Part shown: in pieces, positions 4,551 to 51,851 of the stretch
Layout of the letters: each line of letters starts with the position of its first letter
How positions within the stretch are numbered: the first letter of the stretch is position 1
Source of the DNA: Polyangiales bacterium
GTDB taxonomy: Bacteria > Myxococcota_A > Polyangia > Polyangiales > Ga0077539
Direction: 5' to 3'
Length of the DNA stretch: 64,000 nt
Assembly: GCA_044229975.1 (NCBI GenBank)
Contig: JBGARZ010000001.1
Location: 736,001 to 800,000 of the forward strand
Made by a program: the position numbers and the translations under genes
Notes under the pieces: generated by a model
Databases searched by the model: none
Told to the model about the DNA's origin: nothing
Seen by the model: only the letters and a program-made list of their open reading frames with translations

Positions 4551-4591
4551 CCATGAATGGGACCTGACCCGGGGTCGCTTCACGCAAAATC
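4551..4591 (-). promoter_or_regulatory. Putative ECF promoter GAAGC-N17-CATTC driving the VTC operon
   Basis: Minus strand GATTTTGCGTGAAGC-gaccccgggtcaggtcc-CATTCATGG; same layout and same CATTCATGG as the site before sigma-1. Confidence 0.65.
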
Positions 4592-4626
4592 CACCGCGAT
4601 GTTTCATGTTGCGATATGACCCCATC

Positions 4627-5616
4627 GTGGACCGCGCGTGGAGGCTCGCGACGCTGAGCCTGGCGTCGCTGTCGATGGCAGGGACGGCGGCGGGCGCCCA
4701 GGAGACCGGGCGGTTTCGCTACGCCTGGGCGCGCGACGAGGGCGCCGAACGCTGCCCCGACGGCCCCACCATCGCCCGCGACGTCGCGCGGCGGTTGGGT
4801 CGCGATCCCTTCGTGACGGTGAGCGGAGCGCCCTCCATCGAAGCGATGGTGCGCCGCGAGGGGTCGTCCTGGGTGGCCCGCCTCGTGGTGCGCGACGCGG
4901 GCGGCGGCCTCGTCGGCACGCGTGAGTTCACCAGCACCTCGGCCGACTGCACCGCCATCGCCTCGGCCGTCACGCTCGGGGTCGCGCTCTCCATCGATCC
5001 AGAGGCCGCGCTCCGACCGCCCCCGACCGAAGCGCCGCCCACCGCTCAACCAGTGACCCCGCCCGACGTCTCGCCTGCCCGCATCACACCGCCGACTCCC
5101 TGGTGGCGGCGGGCATCGGCGAGCGCGCGCGTGTCCGTGATGGCGGGACTGCTACCGGGCGCGGGCGTCGGGCTCTCGCTGGGCGCCGAGGGTGGGCCGC
5201 TGCCGTTGCTGCGAGTCGGCGCGGGGATGTCGTTCTTCCCCGAGTCGGCGACGACGTCGGGGGCGTACGCGTTCGGGTTGGCGACGGGCTGGGTCACCGC
5301 GTGTCTCGAACCATGGCGCGGTGTGCGCGCGGCGTTGGGGTTCTGCGCGCGGGTCGACGTGGGGGCGCTACAGGCCGTCGTGATGCGGGGCATCCCGCTG
5401 GGTGCCGGACAGCAGGTGTGGGGCGCGGTCACCCTCGCGCCGCGGTTGCGTCTCCACATCGCGGGGCCGGTTGCGGCCGAGCTCGGCGTCGAAGCGATGG
5501 TTCCCTTCGCGCGGCACCGCTTCAACGTCGACAGAAACACCGTGTTTCAGCAGGGAGTCGGCGGGAGCTTCGTGGCGCTCGGAGGATTCCTGGGGCTCGC
5601 CTTGCAGTTTCGCTGA
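4627..5616 (+). CDS. Secreted / outer-membrane beta-barrel-like protein of ECF module 1
   Basis: Signal peptide, N-domain WARDEGAERCPDG...RRLGRDPF...DCTAIASAVTLGVALSIDP, Pro-rich linker, amphipathic strands ending LALQFR. Paralog of 41737..42702. GTG start chosen tentatively. Confidence 0.7.
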   Translation: MDRAWRLATLSLASLSMAGTAAGAQETGRFRYAWARDEGAERCPDGPTIARDVARRLGRDPFVTVSGAPSIEAMVRREGSSWVARLVVRDAGGGLVGTREFTSTSADCTAIASAVTLGVALSIDPEAALRPPPTEAPPTAQPVTPPDVSPARITPPTPWWRRASASARVSVMAGLLPGAGVGLSLGAEGGPLPLLRVGAGMSFFPESATTSGAYAFGLATGWVTACLEPWRGVRAALGFCARVDVGALQAVVMRGIPLGAGQQVWGAVTLAPRLRLHIAGPVAAELGVEAMVPFARHRFNVDRNTVFQQGVGGSFVALGGFLGLALQFR

Positions 5617-5645
5617 AGGGGGGACAACCCCAACGACATTCATGG
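5606..5645 (+). promoter_or_regulatory. Putative autoregulatory ECF promoter GAAGG-N17-CATTC
   Basis: GAAGG at 5615-5619, 17-nt spacer, CATTC at 5637-5641, just before the sigma gene. Confidence 0.65.
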
Positions 5646-5650
5646 GCCGG

Positions 5651-6223
5651 ATGTACCAGACGCTCGCCAGCCCCCTGACCGCGGACGCCCCCCGAGCGCT
5701 CGACCTCAACGAGGTCTATGCCGCGCACGCGGACTTCGTGTGGGCCTCGCTCCAGCGGCTGGGGGTTCGGCCGAGCGACCTCGACGACATGCTCCAGGAA
5801 GTCTTCATGATCGTGCACCAGCGGCTGCACACCTTCGATCACAGCTCGAAGGTCACGACGTGGCTCTTCGGGGTGTGCCTGCGGGCGGCGTCGGACTACC
5901 GACGTCGGGCGTGGCGTCGGCGCGAGAGCGTCGGCGACGAGCCGGTGGAGGAGCCCGGTGGCTCGCACGAGACGACCCCCGAAGACGATGCAGCAGGCAG
6001 CGAAGCGAGGGAGCGCCTCGACGCCGTGCTCGACGAGCTCGACGTGGAGAAGCGCGCGGTGTTCGTGATGTTCGAGGTGGAGGAAATGGGCTGTGATGAG
6101 ATCGCCGCCCTGGTGGGCGTGCCCGTCGGCACCATCTACTCGCGTCTGCACTCCGCGCGAAAGCAGTTCGAGAAGGCGCTCGCCCGACAGAAGGCGCGGG
6201 ACGTTCATGGAGGTGCGCGATGA
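5651..6223 (+). CDS. ECF RNA polymerase sigma factor (sigma-1)
   Basis: Region 2 (HADFVWASLQRLGV...DDMLQEVF...TTWLFGVC) and region 4 (KRAVFVMFEVEEM...EIAALVGVPVGTIYSRLHSARKQF). An alternative ATG lies at 5642. Confidence 0.92.
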   Translation: MYQTLASPLTADAPRALDLNEVYAAHADFVWASLQRLGVRPSDLDDMLQEVFMIVHQRLHTFDHSSKVTTWLFGVCLRAASDYRRRAWRRRESVGDEPVEEPGGSHETTPEDDAAGSEARERLDAVLDELDVEKRAVFVMFEVEEMGCDEIAALVGVPVGTIYSRLHSARKQFEKALARQKARDVHGGAR

Positions 6224-7116
6224 GTGACCCGATTCGCTGGCGGGCGCCCGGCGGCGGCGCTCCCTCCGGGGCGCGCGACCTGCTCCGTCACGCCTCGGCG
6301 CCGAAGGCACTGAGCGCCGCACACCGGGCCCACCACGCGGCGGTGCTCGCGAAGGCTACGGCGGCGGTCGGCGCGGGCACCGGGGCGGCCGCGGGGACCA
6401 AGCTGGCCCTGGGCGCGAAGCTCTTCGCGAGCGGCAAGCTGGTGGTCATCGGGCTCGCGTCGGTGGCCGTCGTCGCGGTGGCCACGGCGACCATCCGCCA
6501 GCCCGCGGTGCAGCCCACGGCGCCGGTCGCGCAGGTCCACGTCGCGCCGCGCGAAGACGCACCCGTCTCGCCCGCGAGGGTCGCGGAGCCCGTGGTGCCG
6601 GAGACGTCGCCGCCGCCTGCGGTCGAGCCCGTCGCGGCACCTGTCGTCGAGCCGGTGGTTGCGGTCACAGCACCTGTCGCGCGCCACACTGCGCCATCGG
6701 TCGCTGCTCCCTCTGCGATCGCTGCGGCGAGCGGCGATCCGGCACCAGCGCCCACCGCCGAAACCACCGCTGACCCCACACCCGCCACGGGTGGTGGGGT
6801 CGTCGTCGCGCCGACGATCGCCACGGCAGCCGCGCCGATGCCGCCGGAAGATCCGCTCGCCGTCGAGGCGCGCCTCATGGAGCGGGCGTGGCGTTCGCTG
6901 GCGTCCGATCCGCACGACGCGCTCGCGATCGTCCAACAGCACGAGCGGGAGTTTCCCAACGGCCAGAGTGCTGCTGACCGTGACTGGATCGCCGTCCAGG
7001 CGCTCCGCTCGCTCGGGCGCACCGCCGAGACCCGCGCCCGCGCCCAGGCGCTCATCGCGCATCACCCGCGAAGTCCCTACGTCCAGCGCGCGCGGGATAT
7101 CCTCGACGCTCCATGA
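6220..7116 (+). CDS. Putative anti-sigma factor (one TM, Pro-rich linker, C-terminal TPR-like helices)
   Basis: ATGA-coupled to the sigma gene; C-terminus EARLMERAWRSLASDPHDALA...ALRSLGR...HPRSPY. Paralog of 40350..41105. Confidence 0.7.
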   Translation: MSDPIRWRAPGGGAPSGARDLLRHASAPKALSAAHRAHHAAVLAKATAAVGAGTGAAAGTKLALGAKLFASGKLVVIGLASVAVVAVATATIRQPAVQPTAPVAQVHVAPREDAPVSPARVAEPVVPETSPPPAVEPVAAPVVEPVVAVTAPVARHTAPSVAAPSAIAAASGDPAPAPTAETTADPTPATGGGVVVAPTIATAAAPMPPEDPLAVEARLMERAWRSLASDPHDALAIVQQHEREFPNGQSAADRDWIAVQALRSLGRTAETRARAQALIAHHPRSPYVQRARDILDAP

Positions 7117-8066
7117 GCTGGCCTCCCGCGTCGACCGCTCTGCTTCTCGCCGTCGCTCTCTCCGCCTGTACGCCCGACGTCGATCTCGCGACCTCCGCCG
7201 CACCCGATGCATCTCCGCCCCGCTGGGCCGTCGTCGCCAGCACCACGCCCGTCGACCTCCGCGCCATCCACGGCACCGCCGCCGATGACATCTGGGCCGT
7301 CGGCGACAATGGCGTCGCACTCCACTGGGACGGTTCCCGCTGGAGCGCCGTCGCCACCAACACGTCCGTCGACCTCGTCGGTGTCTGGGCCCACACGCGC
7401 GACGACGCCTGGGCCTTCGGTGGTGGCAACCCCGGCGGCCCGCGCTTCCTCCGCTGGAACGGCACCGCCTGGAACCCCGTCACCCCGAGCCTCCCCCGCC
7501 CCATCTTCCCGCGCGCCGTCTGGGGCGCCGACAACCACGTCTGGTTTGTCGGTGAAGCCATGGGAGGCGATCCGCCCATCTACCACTGGGACGGCACCAG
7601 CTTCGGGCCCGAGATGGTCCCGACCCGCCCGCAGCAGCTCGTCGGCATCACCGCCGCCAGCGCCGACGACGCCTGGACCGTCAGCGATCGTGTGATCGCC
7701 CGCCGGGTCAGCGGCAACTGGACCCTTCCCTTGCCGCCACCGCCCAGCGGTCCTCCCTTCGCCGGCGCGATGTGCGCGACCCGCGGCGGCGTGTGGGCCG
7801 CCGTCGAAGGCGGCCCCGTCCTGCGCGGCAACGGAAGCGGCTGGAACCCCACCACACCTCCCACCTCGACCACGCTGCGCGCCCTCTGGTGCGACCGCAC
7901 CGATGACGTCTGGGCCCTCGACGGCAGCGCCCGCATCCTCCACTTCCACGACTCCGCGTGGACCGTCGAGCCCTTGCCCCGCGGCGACCTCTCGGCGCTC
8001 TGGGGCGTCGGCAACGAGCTCTGGGCCGTCGGCGCCCGCGGCACCATTCTCCGGTCCAACCCGTAG
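7113..8066 (+). CDS. Beta-propeller repeat lipoprotein
   Basis: LSAC lipobox; repeated L-x-[AG]-[VIL]-[WH]-G...D-[AVI]-W-A-V-G...[LY]HWDG units. Confidence 0.8.
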   Translation: MSWPPASTALLLAVALSACTPDVDLATSAAPDASPPRWAVVASTTPVDLRAIHGTAADDIWAVGDNGVALHWDGSRWSAVATNTSVDLVGVWAHTRDDAWAFGGGNPGGPRFLRWNGTAWNPVTPSLPRPIFPRAVWGADNHVWFVGEAMGGDPPIYHWDGTSFGPEMVPTRPQQLVGITAASADDAWTVSDRVIARRVSGNWTLPLPPPPSGPPFAGAMCATRGGVWAAVEGGPVLRGNGSGWNPTTPPTSTTLRALWCDRTDDVWALDGSARILHFHDSAWTVEPLPRGDLSALWGVGNELWAVGARGTILRSNP

Positions 8067-8156
8067 TCCGCCTCCCCGCTCCGCACCTGTCACGCGAACG
8101 CCGCAATCGACCGCGGCGGCTCTGATAGACGTGGCCGCAGCGAGGTCAGCGAACCT

Positions 8157-9557
8157 GTGGTGAAGCGCGCAGCTCTGTGGTCCATCGCCCTGGCGGGCGT
8201 CTCGATCGGCCTCTCCCTTCCGCGGGAGGCCCATGCAGTCCGGGTGTGGGAGGAGGCACGAGCGGGATGGGTTCCGCCCGGCGGCATCGGCCCCGGGGGA
8301 CTCTCCCTCTCCAACATGTTCACGGGCTCCGGCGCGTCGCCCGACCTGCGCGCGCCCGACTTCGTGCCGCCCCTCGCCGCGGGCGGTCACGTGGGCTCCA
8401 GCCGCTACCCCGAAGGCGTCGCCGAGCGCTGGCTCGACATCGGCTTCTTCGCGCAGCCGCAGTTCATCTACCAGACCGGCTACGACTCCGATCAATCGTC
8501 CAACTTCTCGCTCCCCTTGGGCGTGAGCCTGCCGCGCACCCGCGTGGTCATCCACGGCCAGGTGCACCCGCTCCTCCAGATGCGCTTCGAGTTCAACATG
8601 TCGAACAACCTCGACCTGCTCGACGCCTACGCCCTCGTCCCCATCCGCCGCTGGCTCCAGGTGCAGATCGGGCAGTTCCGCGTGCCGTTCTCCCGCCAGG
8701 AGCTCGTCTCCGGGTCGCGCTACCAGTTCACCGAGCGCGCGCTCTGGGCCGGCAACGCCAACGCCTCGGGCGTGCGCTTCATCCCCAGCTTCGACCTCGG
8801 CGGCATGGTCTGGGGCTGGGTCGGCCCCCGCGACATCTTCGAGTACTACGCCGGCTTCTGGAACGGTAAGGGTCGCAACGCCGCCTTCAATCTGGACAGC
8901 AACCTCCTCTACGCGGGCCGCGTCGCCATCAATCCCCTCGGTCGTCCGCGCGCGTTGCAGGAAGGCGCCATCAACCTGCCGCAGACCGCCACCCTCGCCA
9001 TCGGACTCAACGCCGCGTACCAGGTGCGCCAGGTCGGGCTCGTCACGCTCCCCGGGCAGACCGCCGCCGTCCCCAACCGCATCGACGTCACTTCCCTCGG
9101 CGCCGACGTCTTCTTCGCCGCGCGCGGCTTCTCGGCTTACGGAGAGGTGTACTTCCGCGACACGCAGGAGACCGACACCGCGGCCGCGCCCAACACCCAG
9201 TCCCTCGGCTGGCTCGTGCAAGCCGGGTACTTCATCCCGACGCCCGCGCTACGCAACCACCTCGAAGTCGTCGCCCGCGCGCAGAGCTTCGACCCGTCCA
9301 ACTGCTACACGGTCAGCGCCGGCGACAACTGCGGTCAGCGACCGCCCGCGTCGCAGTCGCGCGAGGTGTACCGCGACTTCATGTTCGCCCGCGCCTACAC
9401 CTTCGGCGTCAACTGGTACCAGCTCGGACACGGTTTCAAGATCCAGGCGCAGTACACGATCAACACCGAGCACCGCGACGTCACCAACGACCGTCGCCCC
9501 GGTAGCGGTGTCGTCGCCAACGACCTCTTCTCCCTGCTCCTCACCGGCTCGTTCTGA
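8157..9557 (+). CDS. Phosphate-selective porin O/P family outer-membrane protein
   Basis: LLDAY, QVQIGQFRVPFSRQEL, YAGFWNGKG, GWLVQAGY, GVNWY and a C-terminal Phe. Confidence 0.8.
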   Translation: MVKRAALWSIALAGVSIGLSLPREAHAVRVWEEARAGWVPPGGIGPGGLSLSNMFTGSGASPDLRAPDFVPPLAAGGHVGSSRYPEGVAERWLDIGFFAQPQFIYQTGYDSDQSSNFSLPLGVSLPRTRVVIHGQVHPLLQMRFEFNMSNNLDLLDAYALVPIRRWLQVQIGQFRVPFSRQELVSGSRYQFTERALWAGNANASGVRFIPSFDLGGMVWGWVGPRDIFEYYAGFWNGKGRNAAFNLDSNLLYAGRVAINPLGRPRALQEGAINLPQTATLAIGLNAAYQVRQVGLVTLPGQTAAVPNRIDVTSLGADVFFAARGFSAYGEVYFRDTQETDTAAAPNTQSLGWLVQAGYFIPTPALRNHLEVVARAQSFDPSNCYTVSAGDNCGQRPPASQSREVYRDFMFARAYTFGVNWYQLGHGFKIQAQYTINTEHRDVTNDRRPGSGVVANDLFSLLLTGSF

Positions 9558-9575
9558 GCGCCGCGAGACACCACC

Positions 9576-11018
9576 ATGCGTACCCTCCGAACACTCCCGC
9601 TCGTCGCCCTCCTCTCCCTCGCCGCCTCCTGTCAGGAGACGCTCCAGACGCCCTCCAATGACGCTGGTGGCGTCGCGCCCAACGACCTCGGGTCATCCAC
9701 CGACAGCGCGGCCATCGCCCCCGACGACAGCGGCGAGCCCGCGGCCGACGACCGAACGCCCCTCTCGTACACGCCGATGGGGTGCATGCACACCGTCCGG
9801 TCGCTCGAAGGCAGCGTCAACAACCGGCGCGGCGACACCACCACCTTCGGCCCGATGCCCGACCCCCGCTTCGTGCACACGACGTGGCCGGCCGAGCCCT
9901 CCAGCACCGTCGCGTTTCTCTGGCAGACCGACCGCACCACGCGCGCGACGGTGGTGCAGTACGGCACCGACCCGATGCGCCTCGATCAGACCGCCATCGG
10001 CAGCGTGAGCACCGGTGGTGGTGGCGCGGCGGCCGAGGTCACCATCCACGAGACCCACGTCTGCGGGCTCATGCCCGACACCACGTACCACTACCGCGTC
10101 GGCGGCGAAGGCCACTGGAGCGCGGTGCAGCGCTTCAAGACGGCACCCGCGCCCGGTCGCACGGACTACGACGTCAACTTCGCCGTCACGGGCGACTCGC
10201 GCGACAACTTCACCACCTGGCAGCAGGTGCAGGAGCGCGTGCTGATGGGCGCGCAGCCCCCCGACTTCCAGATCTTCAGCGGCGACGCCGTGCTGCTCGG
10301 AACGCTACAGGGCGCGTGGCGCCAGTGGTTCGCGGGCGCGTCGAGCACCATGGCGGTGATGCCCTTCGTGATGGTGCACGGCAACCACGACGCGCTGGCC
10401 ATCAACTACCTCATCCAGTTTGCGCAGCCGCAGGTGGAGTCGCCCGCGCAGAGCGAGCTGTACTTCTCCTTCGACTACGGCCCCGTGCACTTCGTGGTGC
10501 TCAACGACACGCCGCTCCGCAACGACTACTCGGGCGACGTCGCCGGGACGCAGCTCACCTGGCTGCGCGCCGACCTCGGTCGGGCCCGCGCCAACCGGGC
10601 GCGCGTTCCGTTCATCATCGTGTCGCACCACAAGCCGTGCTTCGGCTCGGCGCGGCACTCCTCCACCGAGGACACCGTCTTCGTGCGCACGACGTGGCCG
10701 CCGATCTTCGACGAGTACGGCGTCGACCTCGTCATCAACGGCCACGAGCACGACTTCGAGCTGAGCAAGGAGGTCGACGGCCTCGGCCAGGAGGTGAGCG
10801 GCCGCCGCGGAACGCGCTACGTCGTGGCAGCAGGCGCGGGCGCAGAGCTCTACACGCTCACCGACGGCACCGCGCGCTCGTGGTCGGCCTACTACGAGAG
10901 CGTGGTCAACCTGCTGCGCGTCCACGCGACGATGACCCGCCTGGAGATCACGCCGTATCGCCTCGACGGCACCGTCATCAACCAGGGTCGACTCACCTTC
11001 ACCCCGCGCGGCACCTGA
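9576..11018 (+). CDS. Purple acid phosphatase family metallophosphoesterase lipoprotein
   Basis: LAASC lipobox; FN3-like GLMPDTTYHYRVG; motifs TGDSR, SGDAV, GNHD, SHH and GHEH. Confidence 0.88.
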   Translation: MRTLRTLPLVALLSLAASCQETLQTPSNDAGGVAPNDLGSSTDSAAIAPDDSGEPAADDRTPLSYTPMGCMHTVRSLEGSVNNRRGDTTTFGPMPDPRFVHTTWPAEPSSTVAFLWQTDRTTRATVVQYGTDPMRLDQTAIGSVSTGGGGAAAEVTIHETHVCGLMPDTTYHYRVGGEGHWSAVQRFKTAPAPGRTDYDVNFAVTGDSRDNFTTWQQVQERVLMGAQPPDFQIFSGDAVLLGTLQGAWRQWFAGASSTMAVMPFVMVHGNHDALAINYLIQFAQPQVESPAQSELYFSFDYGPVHFVVLNDTPLRNDYSGDVAGTQLTWLRADLGRARANRARVPFIIVSHHKPCFGSARHSSTEDTVFVRTTWPPIFDEYGVDLVINGHEHDFELSKEVDGLGQEVSGRRGTRYVVAAGAGAELYTLTDGTARSWSAYYESVVNLLRVHATMTRLEITPYRLDGTVINQGRLTFTPRGT

Positions 11019-11071
11019 ACGCCCCGCCCGCGGTAGACGCGAGCGGGGGCGTTGACTAGATTCCGCGCCCC

Positions 11072-12277
11072 ATGGCCGAGCCCAGCCTGACGACCGAAGC
11101 CCTCCGCGCCGCCGCGGACGAGCTCTCGCAAACCCCCGACGACGACCGCATCCACCGCGTCGCCGAGGCCGTCACCGACGCCCTCGTCGATCAGGCGCAG
11201 CACCGCAACCCCGTGGTCTCGCCCTCCGTCGTCGACGCCCGCGTCGCCGCGCTCAAGCTCAAGCCCGAAGACGGTTCGACGAAGACCGGGCGGCCGCTGG
11301 AGATCGTTCGGGGCGGGGCGCGCAACGCGGCCGAGCGGGCCCTGCTCGCGAGCCTCGTGGCGTGGCACCTGGAGACGCTCCTGCAACGGCGCGACGGTGT
11401 TCACGCGGTGCGCTCGCTCGTCGGCGCGCTCGACTGGATGGAGTTTGTCGGCCACGTGCCGCCGTACACCGCCGCCCGCGAGACCCTCGACGCCGACGTC
11501 GTCGAACGCCTCGACGCCGTGCTCGACGGCGCCCCCATCGAGGCCGCCACGCCCGCCGCCACCGCGGCCGTGCGTGCGTTGCGCGGCAAGGCCCCAGCCC
11601 CCGTCGCGGGTGCGAGCGTGACGCGAGACGGATCGCGCGCGGAGTCCGTGTCCATCGCCGGCGAGCTGGAGGGTGAAGACCGCCCCGGCTGGCGTCGCCT
11701 GCTCTGGGCGATGCTGTGGGCGCGGCCCGCGCGCGCGGTGCTGCGGGTGGTGTTCTCGCTGCGGTCGCCGGTGACGGTGTCGCTCGACGGCGACGCGCTG
11801 CGGGTGCACGGGCACACCGAGCTCCTCGGGCGAACGCTGCGAACCTGGGACGAGCGCTTCCCGCTGTCGGGCATGGCGATGCTGCGACGCGAGGCGAGGT
11901 TTCCGATGCTGCCGGTGGCGGCGTCGGTGTTCGCGCTGGGCTTCGGGTCGGTGCTCGGGGCGCAGCGCGCCATCGAGGGGCTGCGCGCGCACTACTTCCC
12001 GCTCGTGGCCTTCGGGCTGATCGCGGTGTTCGGCGGCGTGCTCTTCGACTGGATCATGCGGGCGGTGTTTCCGGGCGTGACGGGTCACACGCGGCTCACC
12101 GTGCGGGGGCGCGACGGCCGCGGGGCGGTGCTCACGGCGCTGCCGCTGGGCGAGCTCGACGCGCTGATGGACGCGGTCGACTCACGGCTGCGCGGCAGCG
12201 GTGGCGGGGCGGCGGTGCTGTCGAACGAGACGGTGCGGGATGAGGTTCCGGCGCCGTCGCGACATCGCGCGGGGTAG
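11072..12277 (+). CDS. Hypothetical membrane protein
   Basis: 401-aa ORF filling the gap, with two C-terminal TM segments. Confidence 0.7.
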   Translation: MAEPSLTTEALRAAADELSQTPDDDRIHRVAEAVTDALVDQAQHRNPVVSPSVVDARVAALKLKPEDGSTKTGRPLEIVRGGARNAAERALLASLVAWHLETLLQRRDGVHAVRSLVGALDWMEFVGHVPPYTAARETLDADVVERLDAVLDGAPIEAATPAATAAVRALRGKAPAPVAGASVTRDGSRAESVSIAGELEGEDRPGWRRLLWAMLWARPARAVLRVVFSLRSPVTVSLDGDALRVHGHTELLGRTLRTWDERFPLSGMAMLRREARFPMLPVAASVFALGFGSVLGAQRAIEGLRAHYFPLVAFGLIAVFGGVLFDWIMRAVFPGVTGHTRLTVRGRDGRGAVLTALPLGELDALMDAVDSRLRGSGGGAAVLSNETVRDEVPAPSRHRAG

Positions 12278-12314
12278 TCGGCGGGGAGGGACGTGTCGGC
12301 GTCCCTGAGGAGTC

Positions 12315-12884
12315 TCAGGACTTCGGGGCGGACTCGCGCATCGCGTTGGCGGCCGCGATGCCGTCCGCGATGCTCTGGCGAATCGCCGCGAAGAGCGCGG
12401 GCAGCTTGCGGTAGCGGTCGGCCAGCGCCGGAACGCGATCGACCCGGTGCTCGAACTCACGGTTGACCTCGGAGAGGGCGACGTAGAGGTCGTGCGTGAG
12501 AATCTCCGCGCGCTCGGCGTGGAAGGCCTGGAGCCGCTCGATGCGGTGCGCGGCGTCGAGGGTGCGCCGGAGCTCGCCCATCACCCACCTGATCTTGGCC
12601 GGGTCGGGGCCGAGACCGCCAAAGTCGACGTCGTAGCGGGCGGCCTGGGAGACGACCTCCTCGCCCGCGAGCAGCGCCTCGGCGCGGACATCGGACGAGA
12701 GGCGGCGCAGACGACGACGACGCTCCTCGTGGGGGGTCGAACGCCAGCCCTCCGGGCACATGGGGAGCGCGGCGACGGCCACCGCGGGCGCCTTGCGGGT
12801 GCTGTCGATGGTGTCATCGAAGTCGATGACGCTCGCGGCGGTGGTGGTGGTCGAGGACGAAGAGCGAGAACGGCGGGTGGTCAT
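12315..12884 (-). CDS. Hypothetical alpha-helical protein
   Basis: ATG at 12884 (MTTRRSRS...) with RBS AAGGAG; helical, coiled-coil-like composition. Confidence 0.7.
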   Translation of the reverse strand: MTTRRSRSSSSTTTTAASVIDFDDTIDSTRKAPAVAVAALPMCPEGWRSTPHEERRRRLRRLSSDVRAEALLAGEEVVSQAARYDVDFGGLGPDPAKIRWVMGELRRTLDAAHRIERLQAFHAERAEILTHDLYVALSEVNREFEHRVDRVPALADRYRKLPALFAAIRQSIADGIAAANAMRESAPKS

Positions 12885-36963: not shown

Positions 36964-37241
36964 CGGTCGCCGCGCACCGATGCTTGAGCCCGACCCCGAA
37001 GATCCTGCGGGTCAGAGGCGACCACGTCGCACGTCGACATACCTTGCGGCGGACGATCACGTCCCGACCGCGCGACGTGGTGCCCCGTGTCGCGTCGCGC
37101 AACACGGTGGCTTTGGATCCTCACTGATGTGTCGGTGCGCGTCTTTTCCGCACCCCCTTCCAATCGTTGACCCTCGCGCGAGACGCGTGTTGCGATCGTC
37201 ACGTCTCCGCCTTTTCACCCTCCGAAAGGGGTCCCTTTCCC

Positions 37242-41685: not shown

Positions 41686-41725
41686 GGTGAGTGCGCTGCG
41701 CCACCGACGGCCTTCAGCGAATCGT
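41686..41725 (-). promoter_or_regulatory. Putative autoregulatory ECF promoter GAAGG-N17-CACTC
   Basis: Minus strand ACGATTCGCTGAAGG-ccgtcggtggcgcagcg-CACTCACC. Confidence 0.7.
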
Positions 41726-42702: not shown

Positions 42703-43844
42703 AGATCGGGTTGTCGCACGATCTCGAACCCGTAGAAGTCGGCCAGCCCCGTATCGGCACCCGCCTCGGCGGCGCACTCGGGGGCGAAGGTCCCGACGGC
42801 GTGCGTAAACACGAGGTTGTGGAACGAGTACCTCCCACTCGCGCCGCCGAACACCGCCGTCTCCCTCGGCTGCACTGCGCGCCCCCCGGTTACGCCCGAC
42901 ACATCCATACCGAAGGCGCCATCGGTGAGGCCGCATCTCGGCGCCCCGTCGTCGACGCAGGCGGGCTTCGCGGCGCGCTGCACGCCGATGTTGCCCAAGG
43001 GGAAGGGAGCGGCGCCGTTGTACCTGGCGTCGCGGACGGTGTTGGCCACGACCATGAGCACGGCCTGGTCGCCCGCCCGCCGTAGGATCAGCGTCACGTT
43101 GCCGGGGCGGGGGATCGCCACGGGCCCCCCCTCCGCTTGCAGCCGCAGCACCACTTCCGTCCCCACCGCGACGCTCGGCAGCGACTCGAACGCTACGCTG
43201 GTGAGCCACTCTACCGGCATGCCCGCGTCGCCGTCGGGTTGCACGCGGATCACCGCGTCGGGGTGGCACGCGGGGTCGCCCGCCACGGGGGCCGCGCAGT
43301 CCACGGTGAGCGGGGTCGCAAGTCGGCGTGGTGCGATCCACCGACCCTGCACCTCGAAGGGCCCCCCGAACGGGAAGAGCACGCCCGTGTCGGGCGGCGG
43401 CTGAACCACGGCGCGGGGGTAGTAGTCTTCAGCGGCGCAGTAGGGGGCGGCCAGCACCACGTCGTCGACGGGCGTGGGCCCGCCGTCCGCGTCCGTGGTG
43501 CACCCGCCGGTGTGCAGGAACGGCCGGTCGGGCGTGAGGCACCCGCTGACGAAGGTCTGCCCATCGCAGCCGCAGTACTGGAGAGCGATGGCGTCGGCGC
43601 ACGTGTTCACCGCGCACACCCGCACGACGCTGCCGCAGCCCGGCGCGTAGAGGCAGTCGAGGCCCGTCGGCCCGCCGCACGCCGCGCAGACCGCGGGCGC
43701 TGGCGCGTCCAAGATCGGCCCGTCGTCATGAACGGGCGCGTCGCTCGCGCCGCCGTCGCGCTTGTCCGCGAGGAGCACCTTATCGACGCAGCCAGAGAGG
43801 AGGGGAAAGGCGGTCGCAAGCAATCGGGAGAAGTTCTTGTTCAT
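42699..43844 (-). CDS. Cys-rich lipoprotein with a Kazal-like motif
   Basis: LLSGC lipobox; YCGCDGQTFVSGC. Confidence 0.75.
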   Translation of the reverse strand: MNKNFSRLLATAFPLLSGCVDKVLLADKRDGGASDAPVHDDGPILDAPAPAVCAACGGPTGLDCLYAPGCGSVVRVCAVNTCADAIALQYCGCDGQTFVSGCLTPDRPFLHTGGCTTDADGGPTPVDDVVLAAPYCAAEDYYPRAVVQPPPDTGVLFPFGGPFEVQGRWIAPRRLATPLTVDCAAPVAGDPACHPDAVIRVQPDGDAGMPVEWLTSVAFESLPSVAVGTEVVLRLQAEGGPVAIPRPGNVTLILRRAGDQAVLMVVANTVRDARYNGAAPFPLGNIGVQRAAKPACVDDGAPRCGLTDGAFGMDVSGVTGGRAVQPRETAVFGGASGRYSFHNLVFTHAVGTFAPECAAEAGADTGLADFYGFEIVRQPDL

Positions 43845-43853: not shown

Positions 43854-43910
43854 CACCACCCTTTCACCCGTTGAGTGCGCAGGGCGTCTCCCGGCCTTCG
43901 CGAAATCGTC
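43854..43910 (-). promoter_or_regulatory. Putative ECF promoter plus leader/RBS (GAAGG-N17-CACTC...AAAGGGTGGTG)
   Basis: 57-nt element matching 51795..51851 except for a 13-nt spacer segment and two bases. Confidence 0.75.
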
Positions 43911-44860: not shown

Positions 44861-45021
44861 GTCGCTACGCGTCGACCCAGATCGACGCGCGCAACGACGC
44901 GAAGAGCCGTCGGGCGTCGGCGGGCGTCGGCAGCCCGAGCGGGTTGACCGTGCGCGCGACGGCGACGAGCGCGCGTCCCAAGGCGACGGTCTCGCGGGCC
45001 TTGAGCGTCGGCAGGGCAACC
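44861..45021 (-). pseudogene. Chimeric gene remnant (5' piece of a 43926-like gene joined to the 3' piece of a 50618-like gene)
   Basis: VALPTLKARETVALGRALVAVAR matches the start of 43926..44684, followed in frame by LGLPTPADARRLFASLRASIW matching the end of 50618..51784; high nucleotide similarity in both parts. Confidence 0.8.
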
Positions 45022-45103
45022 CGGATTCCTGGGGTGGGTGGAGGGCAACGTGCGAGGTCCCCGGACGCGGCGCTCGGGGCGCCGATGCGAGACTGCGGTC
45101 GAC

Positions 45104-45763
45104 TCACTCGGCGAGTGCGGCGACGCGCGACAGCCCCGCGTCCGCGAGGGCGGTGCGACAGAAGGCGCTCTCGAAGTACCGGTCGGGCACGACATTGTTG
45201 GGATCGGGACTCGCGTTGGCGCACGTCACGTTGAGGACTCCGCGGACCTCGGCCACGGCGGTCGGCGCCGAGGGCCTCGTGGTGCCGTCTTCGAAGCGGA
45301 AGACCGGCCCGAGCGTCGCGCGGAGGGTGATGGTCGCGTCGTCGTTCCAGACCAGCTCGATCTGGCGCATCCACCGCGAGACCGCCGGGTGCAGCGGGTC
45401 CCGGCCCCCGGGCAGGAAGTAGGTGACCGCTCCCCCGGTCGGCGGGTCTGGGCGGATCACGGTGCCGCCGGCCATGAGGAGGCGCACGTCTTCGAGGCTC
45501 AGCGGCGTCTGAAACGACAGGAGCGCGGGCTCCATCGTCGCCGTGTCCCTGTAGCCGCCGGAGACACTGATCTCGTAGTGCGCGTGCCCGTCGCCCTCCC
45601 GCACGTTGAATCCCCCGTGTCCGGGGAACGGTTGGGCGGCGTCGGACACCGTGGCGCTCGCGGTGGCCGACGGTCCTGGGAACGAGCCCGTCGACCATGG
45701 TCCCCTTTCACCGCAGCCCGCGACACCGAGAATCACCAGCATTGCGAGGGTGTGCTTCAACAT
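45104..45763 (-). CDS. Lipoprotein of unknown function
   Basis: RBS GGGAGAGG, MLKHTLAMLVILGVAGC lipobox. Confidence 0.75.
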   Translation of the reverse strand: MLKHTLAMLVILGVAGCGERGPWSTGSFPGPSATASATVSDAAQPFPGHGGFNVREGDGHAHYEISVSGGYRDTATMEPALLSFQTPLSLEDVRLLMAGGTVIRPDPPTGGAVTYFLPGGRDPLHPAVSRWMRQIELVWNDDATITLRATLGPVFRFEDGTTRPSAPTAVAEVRGVLNVTCANASPDPNNVVPDRYFESAFCRTALADAGLSRVAALAE

Positions 45764-45846
45764 CGCGACCTCTCCCTTCCTCATCCGATCGTCTGGCTCA
45801 TGGCCGCGAAGAGCGCCGAGCTTCGCCTGTGTCGCGCCACGAACCT

Positions 45847-47193
45847 CTACGCGAGCGCCGCGTGCAGCGACGCGACGAGGTGCGCGGCGAGCCCAGGCGT
45901 CGGGAGCCCCAGCGCCTCCCCGAGGACCGGGTCGTACCCACGCGCGACCTTGGCCTCGAGCGCGGCGCGGGCGCCCTCGCGGGCCTCGCAGACGGCGGTC
46001 CGCTCGGTCTCGGTGAGTTGCAGCTCCAGCCACGCGGCGACCTGCCAGGCGAGCGACGCGTGGCGCATCTCGTCGTCGGCGATGGCGCCCATCGTCGCGG
46101 CCACGCCCGGCCGTGCGGCCCGCTCGGACTGGACCAGCGCCTCCATCGCAGCCCAGGTCTCATGCACGCAGCCCTCGACCGCGTTCTCCAGGGCGATCGC
46201 GAAGGCCGTGCGTGCGCGCGGCGTCTCGACCTCGACCGGGGGCACCGCGGCGCTCGCCCGCTCTGCGAGGCGGCCCATCATGCGCGCGTGGCGGCGCTCG
46301 TCGTCGGCGCTGCGGCGCGCGGCGTCGATGAGAGACGCGGGGGCGCCGAACTCTGCGAGCTCGCGCGCGAGCGATTCGAACGCGAACACCGACGCGGCCT
46401 CCATGTGCGCAGCGCGGGCGAGCCAGCGGCCCACGGCGTCGGGCGCGTCGAGGCGAGCGTCGCGTAGTCCGTCCGGGCGGCGGCCGGGAACGCCACACCA
46501 GCCGCCATCGGCGGTGCTCCCTTGGGTCGATGTCGTCGCGCCGTCCGGCGCAACGCGGATGACCCAGCCCGTGACCACGTATTGTCCGGAGGGGCAGCGG
46601 GTCGTCGTGCCGCTCACGTCCCACCCCCCCGAGGGGAGCGGGCGCACGGAGCCGAGGCAGGGCACCGCCACGCCGTGTCGATACACCGCGACGAACGCCG
46701 CCTCGGTGACCGTGTCGATGGGCGCGTACAGCCGTACGAAGTCGTCGACGCTGCGGATCGCGCCGACCTCGTCGCCGCGCGTGTACACGAGGATCCACGA
46801 GTCACGCGTCCCGGACGCGGGGTCGTTCGCGAGCGCGGCGAAGGCCGACTCGCAGCTGGCCGCCGAGGTCGTGTTCGCGCAGCGCGCGCCCGACGTGCCG
46901 ATGGTCATCCACGTGCCGTTGGGGTTGATCCCTCCGTCCCAGTGCCGTTCAGCGTTGGTCTTCAGCTCCAGGTAGTCGAAGCGGGCGGAGCTTCGCAGCG
47001 GGTCGAGCTGGGAGGAGAGCGAGTAGTAGGTCTGATCGGCGGGGCAGGCGTTCGCGCCGGGCGGGCCCGCGCCCGGCGTCACGGACTCGGTGCAGCCCTC
47101 CGCGGCGACTGCCGCGACGAGGATCGAACGAAAGAGCGTCGGGAATGACGCGGGCTCTGGGGATCGGGCAAGGCGACTGCGTCTCGCAAACAT
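45847..47193 (-). CDS. Lipoprotein with C-terminal ferritin-like (diiron) domain
   Basis: AAEGC lipobox-like, Cys-rich N-domain, GRRPDGL, HMEAASV, DDERRH, ENAVEGCVHE and DDEMRH. Confidence 0.85.
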   Translation of the reverse strand: MFARRSRLARSPEPASFPTLFRSILVAAVAAEGCTESVTPGAGPPGANACPADQTYYSLSSQLDPLRSSARFDYLELKTNAERHWDGGINPNGTWMTIGTSGARCANTTSAASCESAFAALANDPASGTRDSWILVYTRGDEVGAIRSVDDFVRLYAPIDTVTEAAFVAVYRHGVAVPCLGSVRPLPSGGWDVSGTTTRCPSGQYVVTGWVIRVAPDGATTSTQGSTADGGWCGVPGRRPDGLRDARLDAPDAVGRWLARAAHMEAASVFAFESLARELAEFGAPASLIDAARRSADDERRHARMMGRLAERASAAVPPVEVETPRARTAFAIALENAVEGCVHETWAAMEALVQSERAARPGVAATMGAIADDEMRHASLAWQVAAWLELQLTETERTAVCEAREGARAALEAKVARGYDPVLGEALGLPTPGLAAHLVASLHAALA

Positions 47194-47225
47194 GTGGGCT
47201 CTCCTCGTCGATCACGGCTCACGCT

Positions 47226-47258
47226 GGCACAGCGCGCGTACTGTTTCCGCGCTGTGCC
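47226..47258. other. Perfect 11-bp intergenic hairpin
   Basis: GGCACAGCGCG-N11-CGCGCTGTGCC between two co-oriented genes; no clear U-tract. Confidence 0.55.
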
Positions 47259-47317
47259 CGCGCGATGTTGGGGACGGGAGGCTCTGTTCTGCACGCCGCG
47301 GACCGCGGACGCGCGTG

Positions 47318-47803: not shown

Positions 47804-47919
47804 CGAAGATCTCCCAAAGGTGGACTGGTCTTTATCGAGCAAGGCGCGACGCGCGACGCACTCAGCCGCCGTGCCGCACGCCGTCGAGAGCGCTGCCGCT
47901 GCCGCAAGCAACCTGAGCC

Positions 47920-50457
47920 TCATGTGCACGACCTCATACGATCCCGGCGCGACCCGGAGCGGCGACGGGCGAGCGCGAGTCCGAACGCCGCAAGGACGAC
48001 GAGCCCGCGATGGGTGGTGCGCCCCGGAGTACCGCCGACGTCGCAGATCGCGCCGTCGTCGTGGGGTGTACCTCTGCCGGTCCCGACGTCTGCCGCATCC
48101 GCGATCGTTGCGTCCACGACCGATGCGTCCACGACCGATGCGTCCACGACCGATGCGTCCACGACCGATGCGTCCACGACCGATGCGTCCACGACCGATG
48201 CGTCCACGACCGATGCGTCCACAACCGGCCCGACGCCGACGTCTCGGGGCGCGTCCAACGGGGCGCCCGCGTCGGGGATCGTCCCGCCATCGTCGTGGAA
48301 GAACGCCGCGCGCACCTGTCCCCCCGCGAGGTCGGGATCGAAGGCGGTGTACACGAAGGCGGTGGTCCCGTGGCCGTCGGACGCCATGACGGGCGGCGCT
48401 GCGCGGACCGGCTGCGCGTCGTCGCCGATGATCGCGAGGGGCGTCGGGTCGAGCACCACGCCCGCGGGGGAGACGCGGACGGCGCGCAGCGACCCGTCGC
48501 CCGAGCCGGTCCACACCACCAGGAAGTTGATGCCGTCGAACACCACCTCCGGGTAGTCGCCGATCGAGGTGCCGAGCGGGACGTTGGCGCCGAGGCTGCC
48601 GTCGGGCGCGAGCAGGGTCGTCCCCAACGTGTCGCCGGCCTTCCAGGCGACGAGGTAGGTGCCCCCGCCGTACGCAAGGTGGAGGATGGTGGCGCTGCGG
48701 AGCGACGGCAGCTCGCGAGCGCGCGTGTCGAGCAGGACGCCGTCGCGGTTCAGCCGCGCGAGGTATGTTGAAAAGTACGGCCCCCCCATCCGGAAGACGA
48801 TGGCGAAGTTCGTCCCGTCGGAGGCGGCGACCGGGTTGGGGAGGTTCGAGAAGCCCGCGGCGTAGCAACTCTCCGCCGGAACGAGGGCGGCCCACGAGGC
48901 GTCGAAGCGCCTGGCGCACTCCCTCAAGAACAGCCGCTGCGAGCCCCCGCGGACGACCCCGCTCGGGCCGACGGCCATGGTCACGGGTGGGGCACCGGTG
49001 CGCGTCGCGAAGTTGATCGTCTGGCGCTCGTGCTGACCCGCCACGTCGAGGAAGCGGAAGGCGTCCGCGTGGTCGCCGTCGTAGACGAGCCCGAACCCGT
49101 AGATCGTACCGGCCGTCAGGGGGAGCGCGAGCGGTGCCGCGTCGATCGCCGCACCCGCGGTGCTGAGCCGCACGAAGGACTGGGTGGCCGGGCGCCCCGC
49201 GGCCGGACGGAGGTTGTACCAGGCCGCGAGGAAGTCCGTACCGTTCGAGGAGATCGCGACCCCCGAGGGCGGCGAATAGCCCTGCACCACTGGCCAGGGC
49301 GTCCCCTGCGGGGCGCCGAGGGCGTTGTAGCGGACGAGTGGACTCCCCGCCCGGAAGAACCCGCCGCGAGCGGGGACCACCGCCCCGAAGGCGCTGTCCA
49401 CCGCCAGCCGTTGGGGGACCGCGTCGACGCGGGCGCCCGTCGCGTCGAAGCGCACCACCTGCCGCGGCCCTCCGCTGGACGTGGAGGTGCCGTGCTGGAC
49501 GTAGTGGGTGCCGTCCCACCACAGGTCCAACTGGTACGGCGCCGCGCTGAGGTCGGCGTGGTACGCGAGGGCGGAGATGGGGTTGAGGTCGGCGTCGAAG
49601 AGCCGCGTGTACCAGCCCGCCGGGTTGGAGCCCGAGGCCCTGGCGTACCAGCTCATGAACACTCGCGTCCCGTCGGTCGCGATGCGCAGGTTCAAACGCG
49701 CCGCGCCGACGGCGCCGAGGTCGCGGCCCCCGAGGTCGAGCACGCGCCCGTCGGCCATCACCCGCGCGGCCACGACGTTCGATGGCGAGCCGGATAGCTC
49801 GGTGGTCCATGCCACGATGAAGCGGTCGGCGAGGGCGACGACCATCGGGGTCGACCTGGCCCACCATCCCAACGCGAGCGGAACGGCGTCGAGCAGCCGA
49901 CCGTCGGTGCCCACCCGCTGCGCCGCTACCGAGGTGTTGGGGTCCGCGTCGGGGTACTGCCCGTAGACCGCGAGGCAGGTCGACGGGGTGCAGGCGAGCC
50001 CGAGGTCGTTGCTGTCCACGAGGCTCGGCGAGCCCTCGGGTCGCAGCACGATGGGCGCGCGGTCGAGAGATACCCCCGAGGGCTGCACGCGCGCAGCGGA
50101 GATCCCATCCGACGCCGTCAGGGCGACGACCATGGCGCCGGCTCCGTAGGAGGCGACCCTGTACGACTGGACGTTGGCAGGGTGGTAGTCGATCGGGCCG
50201 AGCGCGGGCACACCGCGGAACGACCTCGCCACCGGCGCCCCGGACGGGTCGTAGGCTTGGACGGTCACGGCCCCGACGCCGCCCACGGGCGTCACGCTGA
50301 ACAGCAGCGTGGACGTGTCGGTCCAGACCGCCAGCATGGTGCCCATGTCCAAGGTGCCCGGCTCCGCGTCCGGCACCGAGGGTGACAGGTTGATCGCTGC
50401 CGCAGCCCCTGGGACGAGCGCCACTACGAGCGCCAAGGAGAGAAGTCGCTGGTTCAT
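47920..50457 (-). CDS. Large secreted beta-repeat surface protein with MYXO-CTERM-like tail
   Basis: Signal peptide; repeated [AS]xDGxxF[LA]VxW...A.RV..DG.VLD units; (VVDAS)n linker; AICDVGG...LVVLAAFGLALARRR. Confidence 0.85.
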   Translation of the reverse strand: MNQRLLSLALVVALVPGAAAAINLSPSVPDAEPGTLDMGTMLAVWTDTSTLLFSVTPVGGVGAVTVQAYDPSGAPVARSFRGVPALGPIDYHPANVQSYRVASYGAGAMVVALTASDGISAARVQPSGVSLDRAPIVLRPEGSPSLVDSNDLGLACTPSTCLAVYGQYPDADPNTSVAAQRVGTDGRLLDAVPLALGWWARSTPMVVALADRFIVAWTTELSGSPSNVVAARVMADGRVLDLGGRDLGAVGAARLNLRIATDGTRVFMSWYARASGSNPAGWYTRLFDADLNPISALAYHADLSAAPYQLDLWWDGTHYVQHGTSTSSGGPRQVVRFDATGARVDAVPQRLAVDSAFGAVVPARGGFFRAGSPLVRYNALGAPQGTPWPVVQGYSPPSGVAISSNGTDFLAAWYNLRPAAGRPATQSFVRLSTAGAAIDAAPLALPLTAGTIYGFGLVYDGDHADAFRFLDVAGQHERQTINFATRTGAPPVTMAVGPSGVVRGGSQRLFLRECARRFDASWAALVPAESCYAAGFSNLPNPVAASDGTNFAIVFRMGGPYFSTYLARLNRDGVLLDTRARELPSLRSATILHLAYGGGTYLVAWKAGDTLGTTLLAPDGSLGANVPLGTSIGDYPEVVFDGINFLVVWTGSGDGSLRAVRVSPAGVVLDPTPLAIIGDDAQPVRAAPPVMASDGHGTTAFVYTAFDPDLAGGQVRAAFFHDDGGTIPDAGAPLDAPRDVGVGPVVDASVVDASVVDASVVDASVVDASVVDASVVDASVVDATIADAADVGTGRGTPHDDGAICDVGGTPGRTTHRGLVVLAAFGLALARRRSGSRRDRMRSCT
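48106..48225. repeat. 15-nt VNTR (CGATGCGTCCACGAC) x8, coding VVDAS
   Basis: Six perfect units flanked by two single-mismatch units. Confidence 0.95.
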
Positions 50458-50617
50458 GTTTCGTCCTCGTGCAAGCGGGTCACCACGTCAAACGCCTTGA
50501 ATTCGAGTCTTTCGCACCGACAATTTGTGCCGAACTGGGTCAGCGATCTCTCCAGTGAGCGTGAGGGGACGCCCAACGGGCGGCGGGCGTTCGTCCCGGT
50601 CGCGCGCCAGAGCCGAC

Positions 50618-51784
50618 TCAAGAGCACACCGTCGCTACGTGTCGGGCCCAGAGTGACGCGCGCAGCGACGCGAAGAGCCGTCGCGCGTCGTCGGGCGTCG
50701 GCAGGCCGAGCTCGCCGACGAGCACCGCCGGGGCGGGCGCCTCTACCGACGCCGCGAGCGCGTCGACAGCCCCGCGCATCGCTGCCGACAGCGCGGCGCC
50801 GTCCGCGTCGGCGCGTGACAGGAACCAATCGCGCACAGACCACGCGAGCGCCGCGTGGCGTGTCTCGTCGTGGGCAATGCGTCGCTGCGCGGCGGCCACG
50901 TCGGGCGCGCTGGCGTGGTCGGCCTGCCACCACGCCACCATCGCGGCCCAGGTCTCGTAGACGCAGCCTTCGACGACGTTCTCCCGCGCCACCGCGTCGA
51001 GCGTGCGTGCAACCGGGGCGTCGACGCGAGCCGTGACCTCGGCAGCCCCGCGACTGCGCGCCAGCGCACCGACGACCGCGGCGTGGCGCACCTCGTCCTG
51101 CGCCGAGGCGCGCGCGGCGACCACCAGCGACTCGGGAGCGCCGTGCGTGGCCAGCTCGCCCGCGAGGCGCTGGAAGGCGACGACCGACGCGGCCTCCAGC
51201 GAGGCCGTCCACGCCAGGAACGCGCCTGCGTCGTCGCCGCTCGCGAGCGCGGGCATCGCGAGGCCCTCGGTGCGCCGTCCGTAGCAGCACGTGCCACAGT
51301 GGACGACGAAGGGGCGCGCGTGGCGGCTCGTGATCTCGCGACAGAATCCCGCGACGACGGTGCCCGAACTGTTCGAACCCGCGCAGAGCGCCCGGCAGGC
51401 CGCGTCGCTCGTCCGGTCCTCGACCCTGGCGTCCAGGCGGGCGATCTCGTCATCAGGGAGTCCGCAGGGGAAGACGACGGTCTGCTCGTAGCCACAACTG
51501 CCGGGCGGGGGTTCGTAGCGCCGCGCGCACGCGCTGGCGTCCGCAACGGCGTCGGGCGCGACTCCCTGGTCGTCGTAGGCGCGGGCGTCGGGTGGCGAGT
51601 AGCCGCAGCGGTTCGCATCGAAGACATCCAGCCCGGGTGAATCGGACGTTGAGGCATCGCCCGAGTCCGTCACGTCAGGCGTGGCAGCGACGCCCGGGGA
51701 ATCCTTACATCCCACGGGGAGCGACGCGGTCAGCGCGACCTGAAAGATCGCGCGCAGGTGCAGGTTGTGTTTGCGAAGGTCCAT
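50618..51784 (-). CDS. Lipoprotein with C-terminal ferritin-like (diiron) domain, paralog of 45847..47193
   Basis: LPVGC lipobox, Cys-rich N-domain, GRRTEGL, LEAASV, QDEVRH, ENVVEGCVYE and HDETRH. Confidence 0.85.
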   Translation of the reverse strand: MDLRKHNLHLRAIFQVALTASLPVGCKDSPGVAATPDVTDSGDASTSDSPGLDVFDANRCGYSPPDARAYDDQGVAPDAVADASACARRYEPPPGSCGYEQTVVFPCGLPDDEIARLDARVEDRTSDAACRALCAGSNSSGTVVAGFCREITSRHARPFVVHCGTCCYGRRTEGLAMPALASGDDAGAFLAWTASLEAASVVAFQRLAGELATHGAPESLVVAARASAQDEVRHAAVVGALARSRGAAEVTARVDAPVARTLDAVARENVVEGCVYETWAAMVAWWQADHASAPDVAAAQRRIAHDETRHAALAWSVRDWFLSRADADGAALSAAMRGAVDALAASVEAPAPAVLVGELGLPTPDDARRLFASLRASLWARHVATVCS

Positions 51785-51794
51785 GGGATCAGGT

Positions 51795-51851
51795 CACCAC
51801 CTTTTCACCCCTTGAGTGCGCGGCCCTCCGCTTCGCCTTCGCGAAATCGTC
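51795..51851 (-). promoter_or_regulatory. Putative ECF promoter plus leader/RBS (GAAGG-N17-CACTC...AAAAGGTGGTG)
   Basis: Minus strand GACGATTTCGCGAAGG-cgaagcggagggccgcg-CACTCAAGGGGTGAAAAGGTGGTG. Confidence 0.75.

Follow-up and report, generated by a model that had tools for sequence, protein, structure and literature searches.

How do two paralogous extracytoplasmic function (ECF) sigma factors, encoded in one stretch of a Polyangiales genome, keep their promoters apart? The stretch (the window below) comprises 64,000 nt of a Polyangiales bacterium (GCA_044229975.1, contig JBGARZ010000001.1, 736,001-800,000 of the forward strand). It contains five copies of a bipartite motif, with either T or C at one base of the downstream half, and genes for two sigma factors, here sigma-1 and sigma-2. 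Both are ECF (group IV) sigmas: they match PF04542 and PF08281 above cut-off, have no region 3, and score 91 and 75 bits against TIGR02937 (cut-off 42.9). A sequence-only reading of the window had proposed a one-base code, each sigma reading its own variant of the -10 element. Our analysis indicates that the five sites are very probably real ECF promoters, as predicted from their sequence. It is likely that the two sigmas share one -35 element and that their circuits are largely insulated by the -10 base together with the base at -13.

We found exactly five matches to GAAG[GC]-N17-CA[TC]TC in the window, at 4555-4581 (-), 5615-5641 (+), 41689-41715 (-), 43873-43899 (-) and 51814-51840 (-), with the coordinates and the invariant 17-nt spacing first reported. 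The chance expectation is 0.44 +/- 0.64, and five matches were reached in 0 of 100 shuffles, for a pattern that was picked after the data had been seen. Other spacers of the same pattern gave no match at 13-16, 20 or 21 nt and one each at 18 and 19 nt. All five sites lie in the sense orientation 5′ of a gene start, also as first reported; the genes are the VTC operon, sigma-1, sigma-2, a lipoprotein gene heading the sigma-2 operon, and a ferritin-like lipoprotein gene. A family matrix with the T/C base masked, trained on a set that included both autoregulatory sites and excluded the three target sites, scored the five at 24.8-28.4 and the next-best window site at 16.0. In all five a pyrimidine-purine step stands exactly 10 nt 3′ of the variable base.

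One feature of the original description did not survive. The TGG of CATTCATGG, taken as part of the motif, is not conserved: other T-type sites read CATTCAC or CATTCAG, and orthologous sites CATGC or CATCC. The bare CACTC form is not enriched in a genome-wide scan, with 64 matches at spacer 17 and 68, 65, 62 and 53 at the control spacers 11, 14, 20 and 23. Because this bare form is not enriched and is mostly intragenic (49 of the 64 matches lie deep inside open reading frames, ORFs), the upstream TT extension is needed. With the TT tract in the matrix, nine sites in the genome score at least 21 at spacer 17, versus 0-3 at the remaining spacers in the 12-23 range. Spacer 17 is common to the eight top-scoring sites of the genome, of which three are GCACTCA, all in the window, and five CATTCA. 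Three of the window sites also contain a CAYTC-N3-GRGTG pseudo-palindrome. We rejected a role as an operator because neither autoregulatory site has it and because its TG coincides with the predicted -1/+1 step.

Promoters were then called 5′ of 94 sigmas of the same family without use of protein sequence, and 72 of these scored at least 10, versus 12-17 in shuffles. Among all 144 homologs collected, an own-gene site was called for 115 (spacer 17 in 89, 16 in 14 and 18 in 12), so that the motif scan upstream of homologous sigmas, suggested as a check on the original idea, recovered the bipartite site. Mutual information over all columns connected the variable base with residues 63-70, the base before CA with Asp82, and the fourth -35 base with Gly160 and His167. 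In an alignment to RpoE these are loop 64-72, Asn84, Gly168 and Phe175, and Tyr163 corresponds to Arg171. The RpoE loop and the Asn84 and Gly168/Phe175 positions are known to read DNA (10.1101/2020.06.23.168245; PMC8103513). According to PMC8103513, the loop reads one flipped base of the -10 element, and exchanging this loop redirects RpoE; Asn84 sets -12/-13, and a Tyr at the Arg171 position gives G at -31 (10.1101/2020.06.23.168245).

The base pairings in the Polyangiales family run along the same lines. Sigma-1-like loops go with T at -10 in 19 of 20 cases, sigma-2-like loops with C in 46 of 48, and loops containing Pro with A in 18 of 19. Asp82 is paired with C at -13 in 41/46 and Ala with G in 24/28, and in the clade with GAAG elements the sixth hexamer base is G with Tyr163 (33/34) and C with His (17/20). 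Because these pairings match the DNA-reading positions of RpoE and the known base rules, the register would be TGAAGS, 16 nt, N(-13) C(-12) A(-11) Y(-10), with transcription starting 10 nt after Y. The first in-frame start codon lies 10-13 nt 3′ of the variable base in 64 of the 115 sigmas; starts at this distance are in frame 70 times and out of frame four times, and the pyrimidine-purine step peaks 10 nt 3′ of the variable base (59 versus 21 for the reverse step). This register has the geometry of SigW promoters, in which the spacing is 16 nt. The SigW elements themselves are given as TGAAAC and CGTA (PMC5758882).

The rule for the -10 base, derived from the first set and then left unchanged, assigns A to sigmas with Pro at 67 or 70, T to the remaining sigmas with Asp63, and C to all others. 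The held-out set was 49 new sigmas, with both variable bases masked during promoter calling. Among the 31 held-out promoters the rule was right at -10 in 27 and at -13 in 30. With the matrix fixed, calls were made for 31/49 real upstream regions, versus 2/49 shuffled and 4/96 far-upstream controls. These replaced two other controls: a far-upstream one with the matrix re-learned, which was weak (43/91 calls), and an inside-gene one (78/94), which was invalid, homologous coding sequence converging on a shared pattern. Over the whole family the rule matches 105 of the 115 called sites.

The rule also extends to targets. A scan of 778 kb around 67 sigmas of other genomes found 32 non-autoregulatory sites near 29 of the 67, and 30 of the 32 carry the locally predicted base (permutation p 5e-5, which is too optimistic, as related sigmas do not count independently). 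Control spacers gave 14 matches at spacer 21 and 0-4 at the others; the former appear to come from the second CA of CATTCA or CACTCA at true sites. In the best tree, which was built without the trait columns and is unsupported, the base differs in about 10 of 12 loop-class contrasts and is shared in 30 of 33 same-loop sister pairs.

These results favor reading the five sites as promoters of two paralogous ECF sigmas with a common -35 element, at which the flipped -10 base (T for sigma-1, C for sigma-2) would be read by the region-2.3 loop of each sigma, keeping the circuits largely apart. Loop FDHSS would select T and loop FEGRS C; Asp82 would favor C at -13, and Ala G, so that the -13 base helps. 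The proposed one-base code thus stands insofar as the T/C base tracks the region-2.3 loop in relatives and nearby targets, and needs widening insofar as at least two bases, -10 and -13, differ between the site types (mostly CCAT versus GCAC). The idea of two sub-regulons fared similarly: the sites fit two sigmas that share their -35-reading residues, but T-type sites also occur outside the window, and a third paralog could read them. One of these, the sixth CATTCA site, stands 5′ of a DUF2490 gene, 2.4 kb beyond the left edge of the window. On contig C33, two more precede genes for an exported protein resembling dioxygenases and for a predicted lipoprotein of 682 aa. The predicted sigma-1 regulon would therefore reach beyond the window.

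Several observations weigh against so clean a separation. No promoter was called for 18 of the 49 held-out sigmas, which were left out of the score, and hybrid [FY]DG[RK] loops are mixed (A 3, C 2, T 4). The independent pairs on well-supported branches number just 3, 2 and 5, too few for significance. The full address is shared by 5 of 162 paralog pairs within genomes, versus 5.9% between genomes, and avoidance of shared addresses within genomes is not significant (permutation p 0.14; 0.07 in the GAAG clade). The two sigma-2 target sites (43873 and 51814) may be one duplicated promoter, because they are 73% identical over 78 nt. Recognition is not fully stringent, because the promoter of sigma-1 itself has A, not C, at -13, and at three of the six T-type sites in the genome the base that is usually G with Tyr163 is C. 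One of the top T-type sites, C39:253083 (L206:7048-7092(-)), points antisense into the 3′ end of the neighboring gene and is a possible antisense promoter. In Bacillus subtilis, ECF sigmas with differing -10 elements still overlap on many promoters, as described in PMC5758882.

Much of this would also be expected if the promoters were real but both sigmas, and a third GAAG paralog, read both variants, the T/C difference being co-inherited and tuning strength within one overlapping regulon. The underpowered tree tests, the ambiguous hybrid loops, the lack of significant address avoidance, the possible duplication and the B. subtilis precedent all leave room for this; we regard it as unlikely, though it deserves a hearing. 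Against it, the covariation signal sits on the known specificity loop and not elsewhere, loop changes in the best tree mostly shift the base and same-loop sisters mostly share it, targets at varied positions keep their local base, and loop swaps are reported to redirect RpoE (PMC8103513).

Another account would make the third paralog, C32:1083743, the main reader of the T-type sites, or a second reader beside sigma-1, so that the first sub-regulon would not belong to sigma-1 alone. This too weighs against a simple two-way division, since the paralog has the same -35 residues (recognition helix PVGTVYSRLH) and a T-type loop (FDGSS), and its own promoter is TGAAGG-16-CATCC. That promoter, however, has a 16-nt spacer and T at -13, and the protein has no Asp82, whereas the T-type sites of the genome have C at -13 in five of six and 17 nt in all six. 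The VTC operon moreover stays beside sigma-1 orthologs in three other genomes. We consider this account quite improbable. That the motif is a by-product of the barrel gene end (a Phe codon and TGA stop), codon periodicity or local duplication is very hard to credit: one site does overlap the barrel-1 stop codon, the bare CACTC pattern does show three-base periodicity and the re-learned far-upstream control did give many calls, but four of the five window sites and the target-scan sites are away from any barrel stop, the fixed-matrix controls and the genome-wide spacer counts single out the real sites, and the pyrimidine-purine step and start codons are in register.

The reading in which two sigmas divide their promoters by -10 and -13 bases concerns only part of a larger system. 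The original reading dealt with the window pair; the 10 Mb genome carries ten close sigma paralogs. Barrel and anti-sigma homologs also number exactly ten each, and every one of them sits in a cassette with a sigma (10:10:10). Across the family, 120 sigmas had enough flanking sequence for this check; a barrel gene was present in 103, an anti-sigma gene in 111 and both in 101. The sigmas have homologs in 2018 protein clusters at E 1e-30 or better; the relatives named among the matches listed are metagenome-assembled genomes of Polyangiales and Polyangiaceae, Minicystis rosea and Polyangium jinanense. The barrel and anti-sigma gave no family match in Pfam or NCBIfam, and a search of the Atlas gave only unnamed Myxococcota clusters.

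Barrel-1 (4606-5616, +) has a signal peptide, a periplasmic alpha/beta domain, a Pro linker and a predicted eight-stranded OmpA/OmpW-like barrel (predicted local distance difference test, pLDDT, 92.7; predicted template modeling score 0.64). The barrel resembles OprF (Z 16.8, root-mean-square deviation 2.1, 133 residues aligned), with OmpW and NspA also matching, whereas matches of the N-terminal domain, to TolB, TraT and the curli channel, are no better than middling (Z about 8). In the anti-sigmas a short, conserved N-terminus precedes a single hydrophobic helix, a Pro-rich linker and a helical C-terminus that is likewise conserved. A complex prediction of the barrel periplasmic domain with the anti-sigma C-terminus scored 0.72 (best control 0.01; the mark for this score is reached by 116/157 solved and 2/215 mismatched pairs), with at least 93% of contacts agreeing between runs and partner pLDDT of at least 86. 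This supports the predicted binding of the two domains.

We infer anti-sigma function, the signal and proteolytic release from gene order and by analogy with known ECF systems. The single-pass anti-sigma would hold each sigma, its periplasmic C-terminal domain docking on the periplasmic domain of a dedicated eight-stranded outer-membrane barrel, and a surface signal would free the sigma, probably via proteolysis. Once free, the sigma would direct synthesis of its own mRNA, which is nearly leaderless, and transcription of a small number of genes for exported proteins. For sigma-1 these would be the cluster from VTC to DUF2490 plus two or more lipoprotein genes farther away, and for sigma-2 two lipoprotein units.

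The predicted autoregulatory promoter of sigma-1 (TGAAGG-N16-ACAT, 5607-5643, +; predicted start 5649, 2 nt 5′ of the ATG) overlaps the barrel-1 stop, its TT and TGA being the last Phe codon and the stop codon. The sigma-1 gene (5651-6223, +; loop FDHSS, Asp82) is followed by the predicted anti-sigma-1 gene (6220-7116, +), whose product follows the layout given above (short N-terminal domain, single hydrophobic helix, Pro-rich linker, helical C-terminal domain), and by a predicted lipoprotein gene (7113-8066, +) that appears to be co-transcribed and is kept in orthologous cassettes. No sigma-70-type promoter or terminator was found in a search of 3500-12500. On the other strand, the predicted sigma-1-type promoter TGAAGC-N16-CCAT (4553-4589, -; predicted start 4547) precedes the VTC-domain gene (3595-4461, -; PF09359, E 9e-21), first in the predicted target operon, then a DUF4956 membrane protein gene (2972-3595, -; PF16316) and two predicted lipoprotein genes spanning 959-2967 (-), at 1954-2967 and 959-1939, the latter with a weak DUF1554 match. 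The operon runs on past the left window edge with PPDK_N-domain, DUF2252 and DUF2490 genes.

The VTC operon adjoins sigma-1 orthologs at L126, L202 and L125. A CCAT-type site stands 5′ of VTC in all three other genomes with the operon in the locus, including one in which the operon has moved, and the DUF2490-gene site is retained at L126 and L202. A literature search on VTC together with DUF4956 found no paper. The PPDK_N (phosphoenolpyruvate-synthase nucleotide-binding) gene, L208:5406-7460(-), which continues into the left end of the window, encodes a predicted lipoprotein that is conserved at 72-74% in three other genomes; such a domain is unusual in an exported protein. Downstream of the sigma-1 cassette (8157-11018, +) are a Porin O/P-family gene and a purple-acid-phosphatase-like gene; neither has a family promoter, and neither turned up next to sigma-1 orthologs. 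Together with VTC and the PPDK_N lipoprotein, these genes hint at a phosphate theme.

The sigma-2 gene (41102-41674, -; loop FEGRS, Ala at the Asp82 position) is 53% identical to sigma-1 at the protein level. It is flanked by genes for the predicted anti-sigma-2 (40350-41105, -), 35% identical to anti-sigma-1 over 200 columns, and barrel-2 (41737-42702, -), 32% identical to barrel-1. Its predicted autoregulatory promoter is TGAAGG-N16-GCAC (41687-41723, -; predicted start 41681). The sigma-2 operon has a predicted promoter of the same type (CGAAGG-N16-GCAC, 43871-43907, -; predicted start 43865) and begins with a predicted lipoprotein gene (42699-43844, -), homologs of which have a GCAC promoter at L122 (two copies) and L200. 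The third site (CGAAGG-N16-GCAC, 51812-51848, -; predicted start 51806) precedes a predicted lipoprotein gene, the other predicted sigma-2 target (50618-51784, -). The product had been called a diiron lipoprotein; it has ferritin-like ExxH motifs but no Pfam match, and its paralog at 45847 has a sub-cutoff rubrerythrin match (E 0.0012). This second ferritin-like lipoprotein (45847-47193, -) is 50% identical to the first over 211 aa, and its gene has no family promoter directly 5′.

Other features occur around sigma-2. A weak GAAGC-N17-CATGA site at 45763-45826 (-), sigma-1-type with C at -13 and no TT tract, precedes an unlisted lipoprotein ORF starting at 45763; it may be a chance match, 0.66 such patterns being expected per 64 kb. 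Rearrangement scars occupy 44876-45033, where 65 nt copied from the end of the 50618 lipoprotein gene (91%) adjoin 81 nt copied from the start of the 43926-44684 gene (91%). Convergent on anti-sigma-2 is a 1036-aa ORF (37167-40277, +) with Cys-rich STIG1/MXAN_6577-like repeats and a Kelch-like end; similar genes occur near several other cassettes. A 15-nt tandem repeat at 48056-48265 encodes a VVDAS-type spacer in an 845-aa exported protein.

Other paralogs of the genome have addresses of their own, TGACGG, TCACGG, TGAGAC or TGAGAA with CAC, CAA or CAT, and some of these recur before exported-protein genes. Two paralogs, C39:132086 and C20:103203, both have TGACGG/CCAC and differ just in spacer (18 versus 17), a pattern that recurs in G001; spacer length may be a further address digit. 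We tentatively propose, at somewhat short of an even chance, a hitherto undescribed, TonB-independent trans-envelope signaling family of Polyangiales (small eight-stranded barrel, single-pass anti-sigma and ECF sigma) with ten channels in one genome, each insulated by a combinatorial promoter address (-35 variant, -13 base, flipped -10 base and spacer) that evolves via repeated switching of the specificity loop. If so, the regulon of any member would be readable from a few residues. A literature search found no paper on the small-barrel cassette or the motif, although these promoters may already be listed in the large tables of PMC7776599; we take the family motif, the natural loop-base code and the small-barrel cassette to be new.

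Discrimination of paralogous ECF sigmas by one or two -10 bases is itself already known, from SigW/SigX (PMC5758882) and from loop swaps. SigW, SigX, SigM and SigV of B. subtilis have a TGAAAC-like -35 element in common and are told apart by -10 elements CGTA, CGAC and CGTC (PMC5758882), so that paralogs with a common -35 are separated by -10 bases, as is predicted here. The Polyangiales system differs in its -10 core, CA-Y with A at -11, in having ten paralogs per genome, and in a T-tract that lies 5′ of the spacer and not within it. SigI/RsgI of Clostridium thermocellum likewise comprises many sigma/anti-sigma paralog pairs per genome with their own promoter variants and exported targets. 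There specificity is reported to lie mainly in the -35 region, loop 3 not being a determinant (PMC10575876), whereas here -10 and -13 vary and -35 is fixed.

The nearest classified groups, likened by description alone, are ECF210 and also ECF267 and ECF25. ECF210, Polyangiales-centered like this family, is listed in PMC7826278 as confined to Sorangium, Sandaracinus and Chondromyces and without regulator or conserved promoter; none of these genera is named among the matches listed for the family sigmas, and the sigmas studied here come with a barrel, a promoter motif and, conserved at +1, a predicted anti-sigma. The present results give a motif and a candidate regulator to myxobacterial ECFs listed without either in the current classification. 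ECF267 has a FecR-like anti-sigma with TPR at +1; neither window anti-sigma has a FecR or TPR Pfam match at E 0.05.

In FecA/FecR/FecI cell-surface signaling, an outer-membrane protein with a periplasmic signaling domain acts with a single-pass anti-sigma and an ECF sigma. The three-part layout is the same here, with a predicted periplasmic contact, but the outer-membrane component is a 336-aa protein with a predicted eight-stranded barrel, not a TonB-dependent transporter, and no FecR domain was found. Such a layout points to surface signaling built around a small barrel in place of a transporter of the TonB-dependent kind. The Dma dual-membrane anti-sigmas of Bacteroidota combine an inner-membrane helix, a long disordered periplasmic tether and an eight-stranded barrel in one polypeptide (PMC10927553). 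The cassette has the same parts and resembles a split Dma in layout; unlike in Dma, the anti-sigma and barrel are separate ORFs flanking the sigma, with predicted periplasmic docking.

A close parallel to the loop-base rule is the published ECF recognition code (PMC8103513; 10.1101/534826; 10.1101/2020.06.23.168245), with which it has in common loop L3 reading the flipped -10 base, the Asn84 position reading -12/-13 and the Arg171 position reading -31. The rule that an acidic residue at Lys56 gives A at -11 does not apply here, the residue being Val in 98 of 115. The published code comes from laboratory swaps and pan-bacterial statistics, whereas here three loop classes switch T, C and A within one paralog family. 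Cross-talk avoidance in expanded sigma families is usually studied pair by pair; here more than 100 natural sigma/promoter pairs, with three loop classes on a shared -35 element, make the loop code directly testable, and loops tracking T, C or A could supply orthogonal switches.

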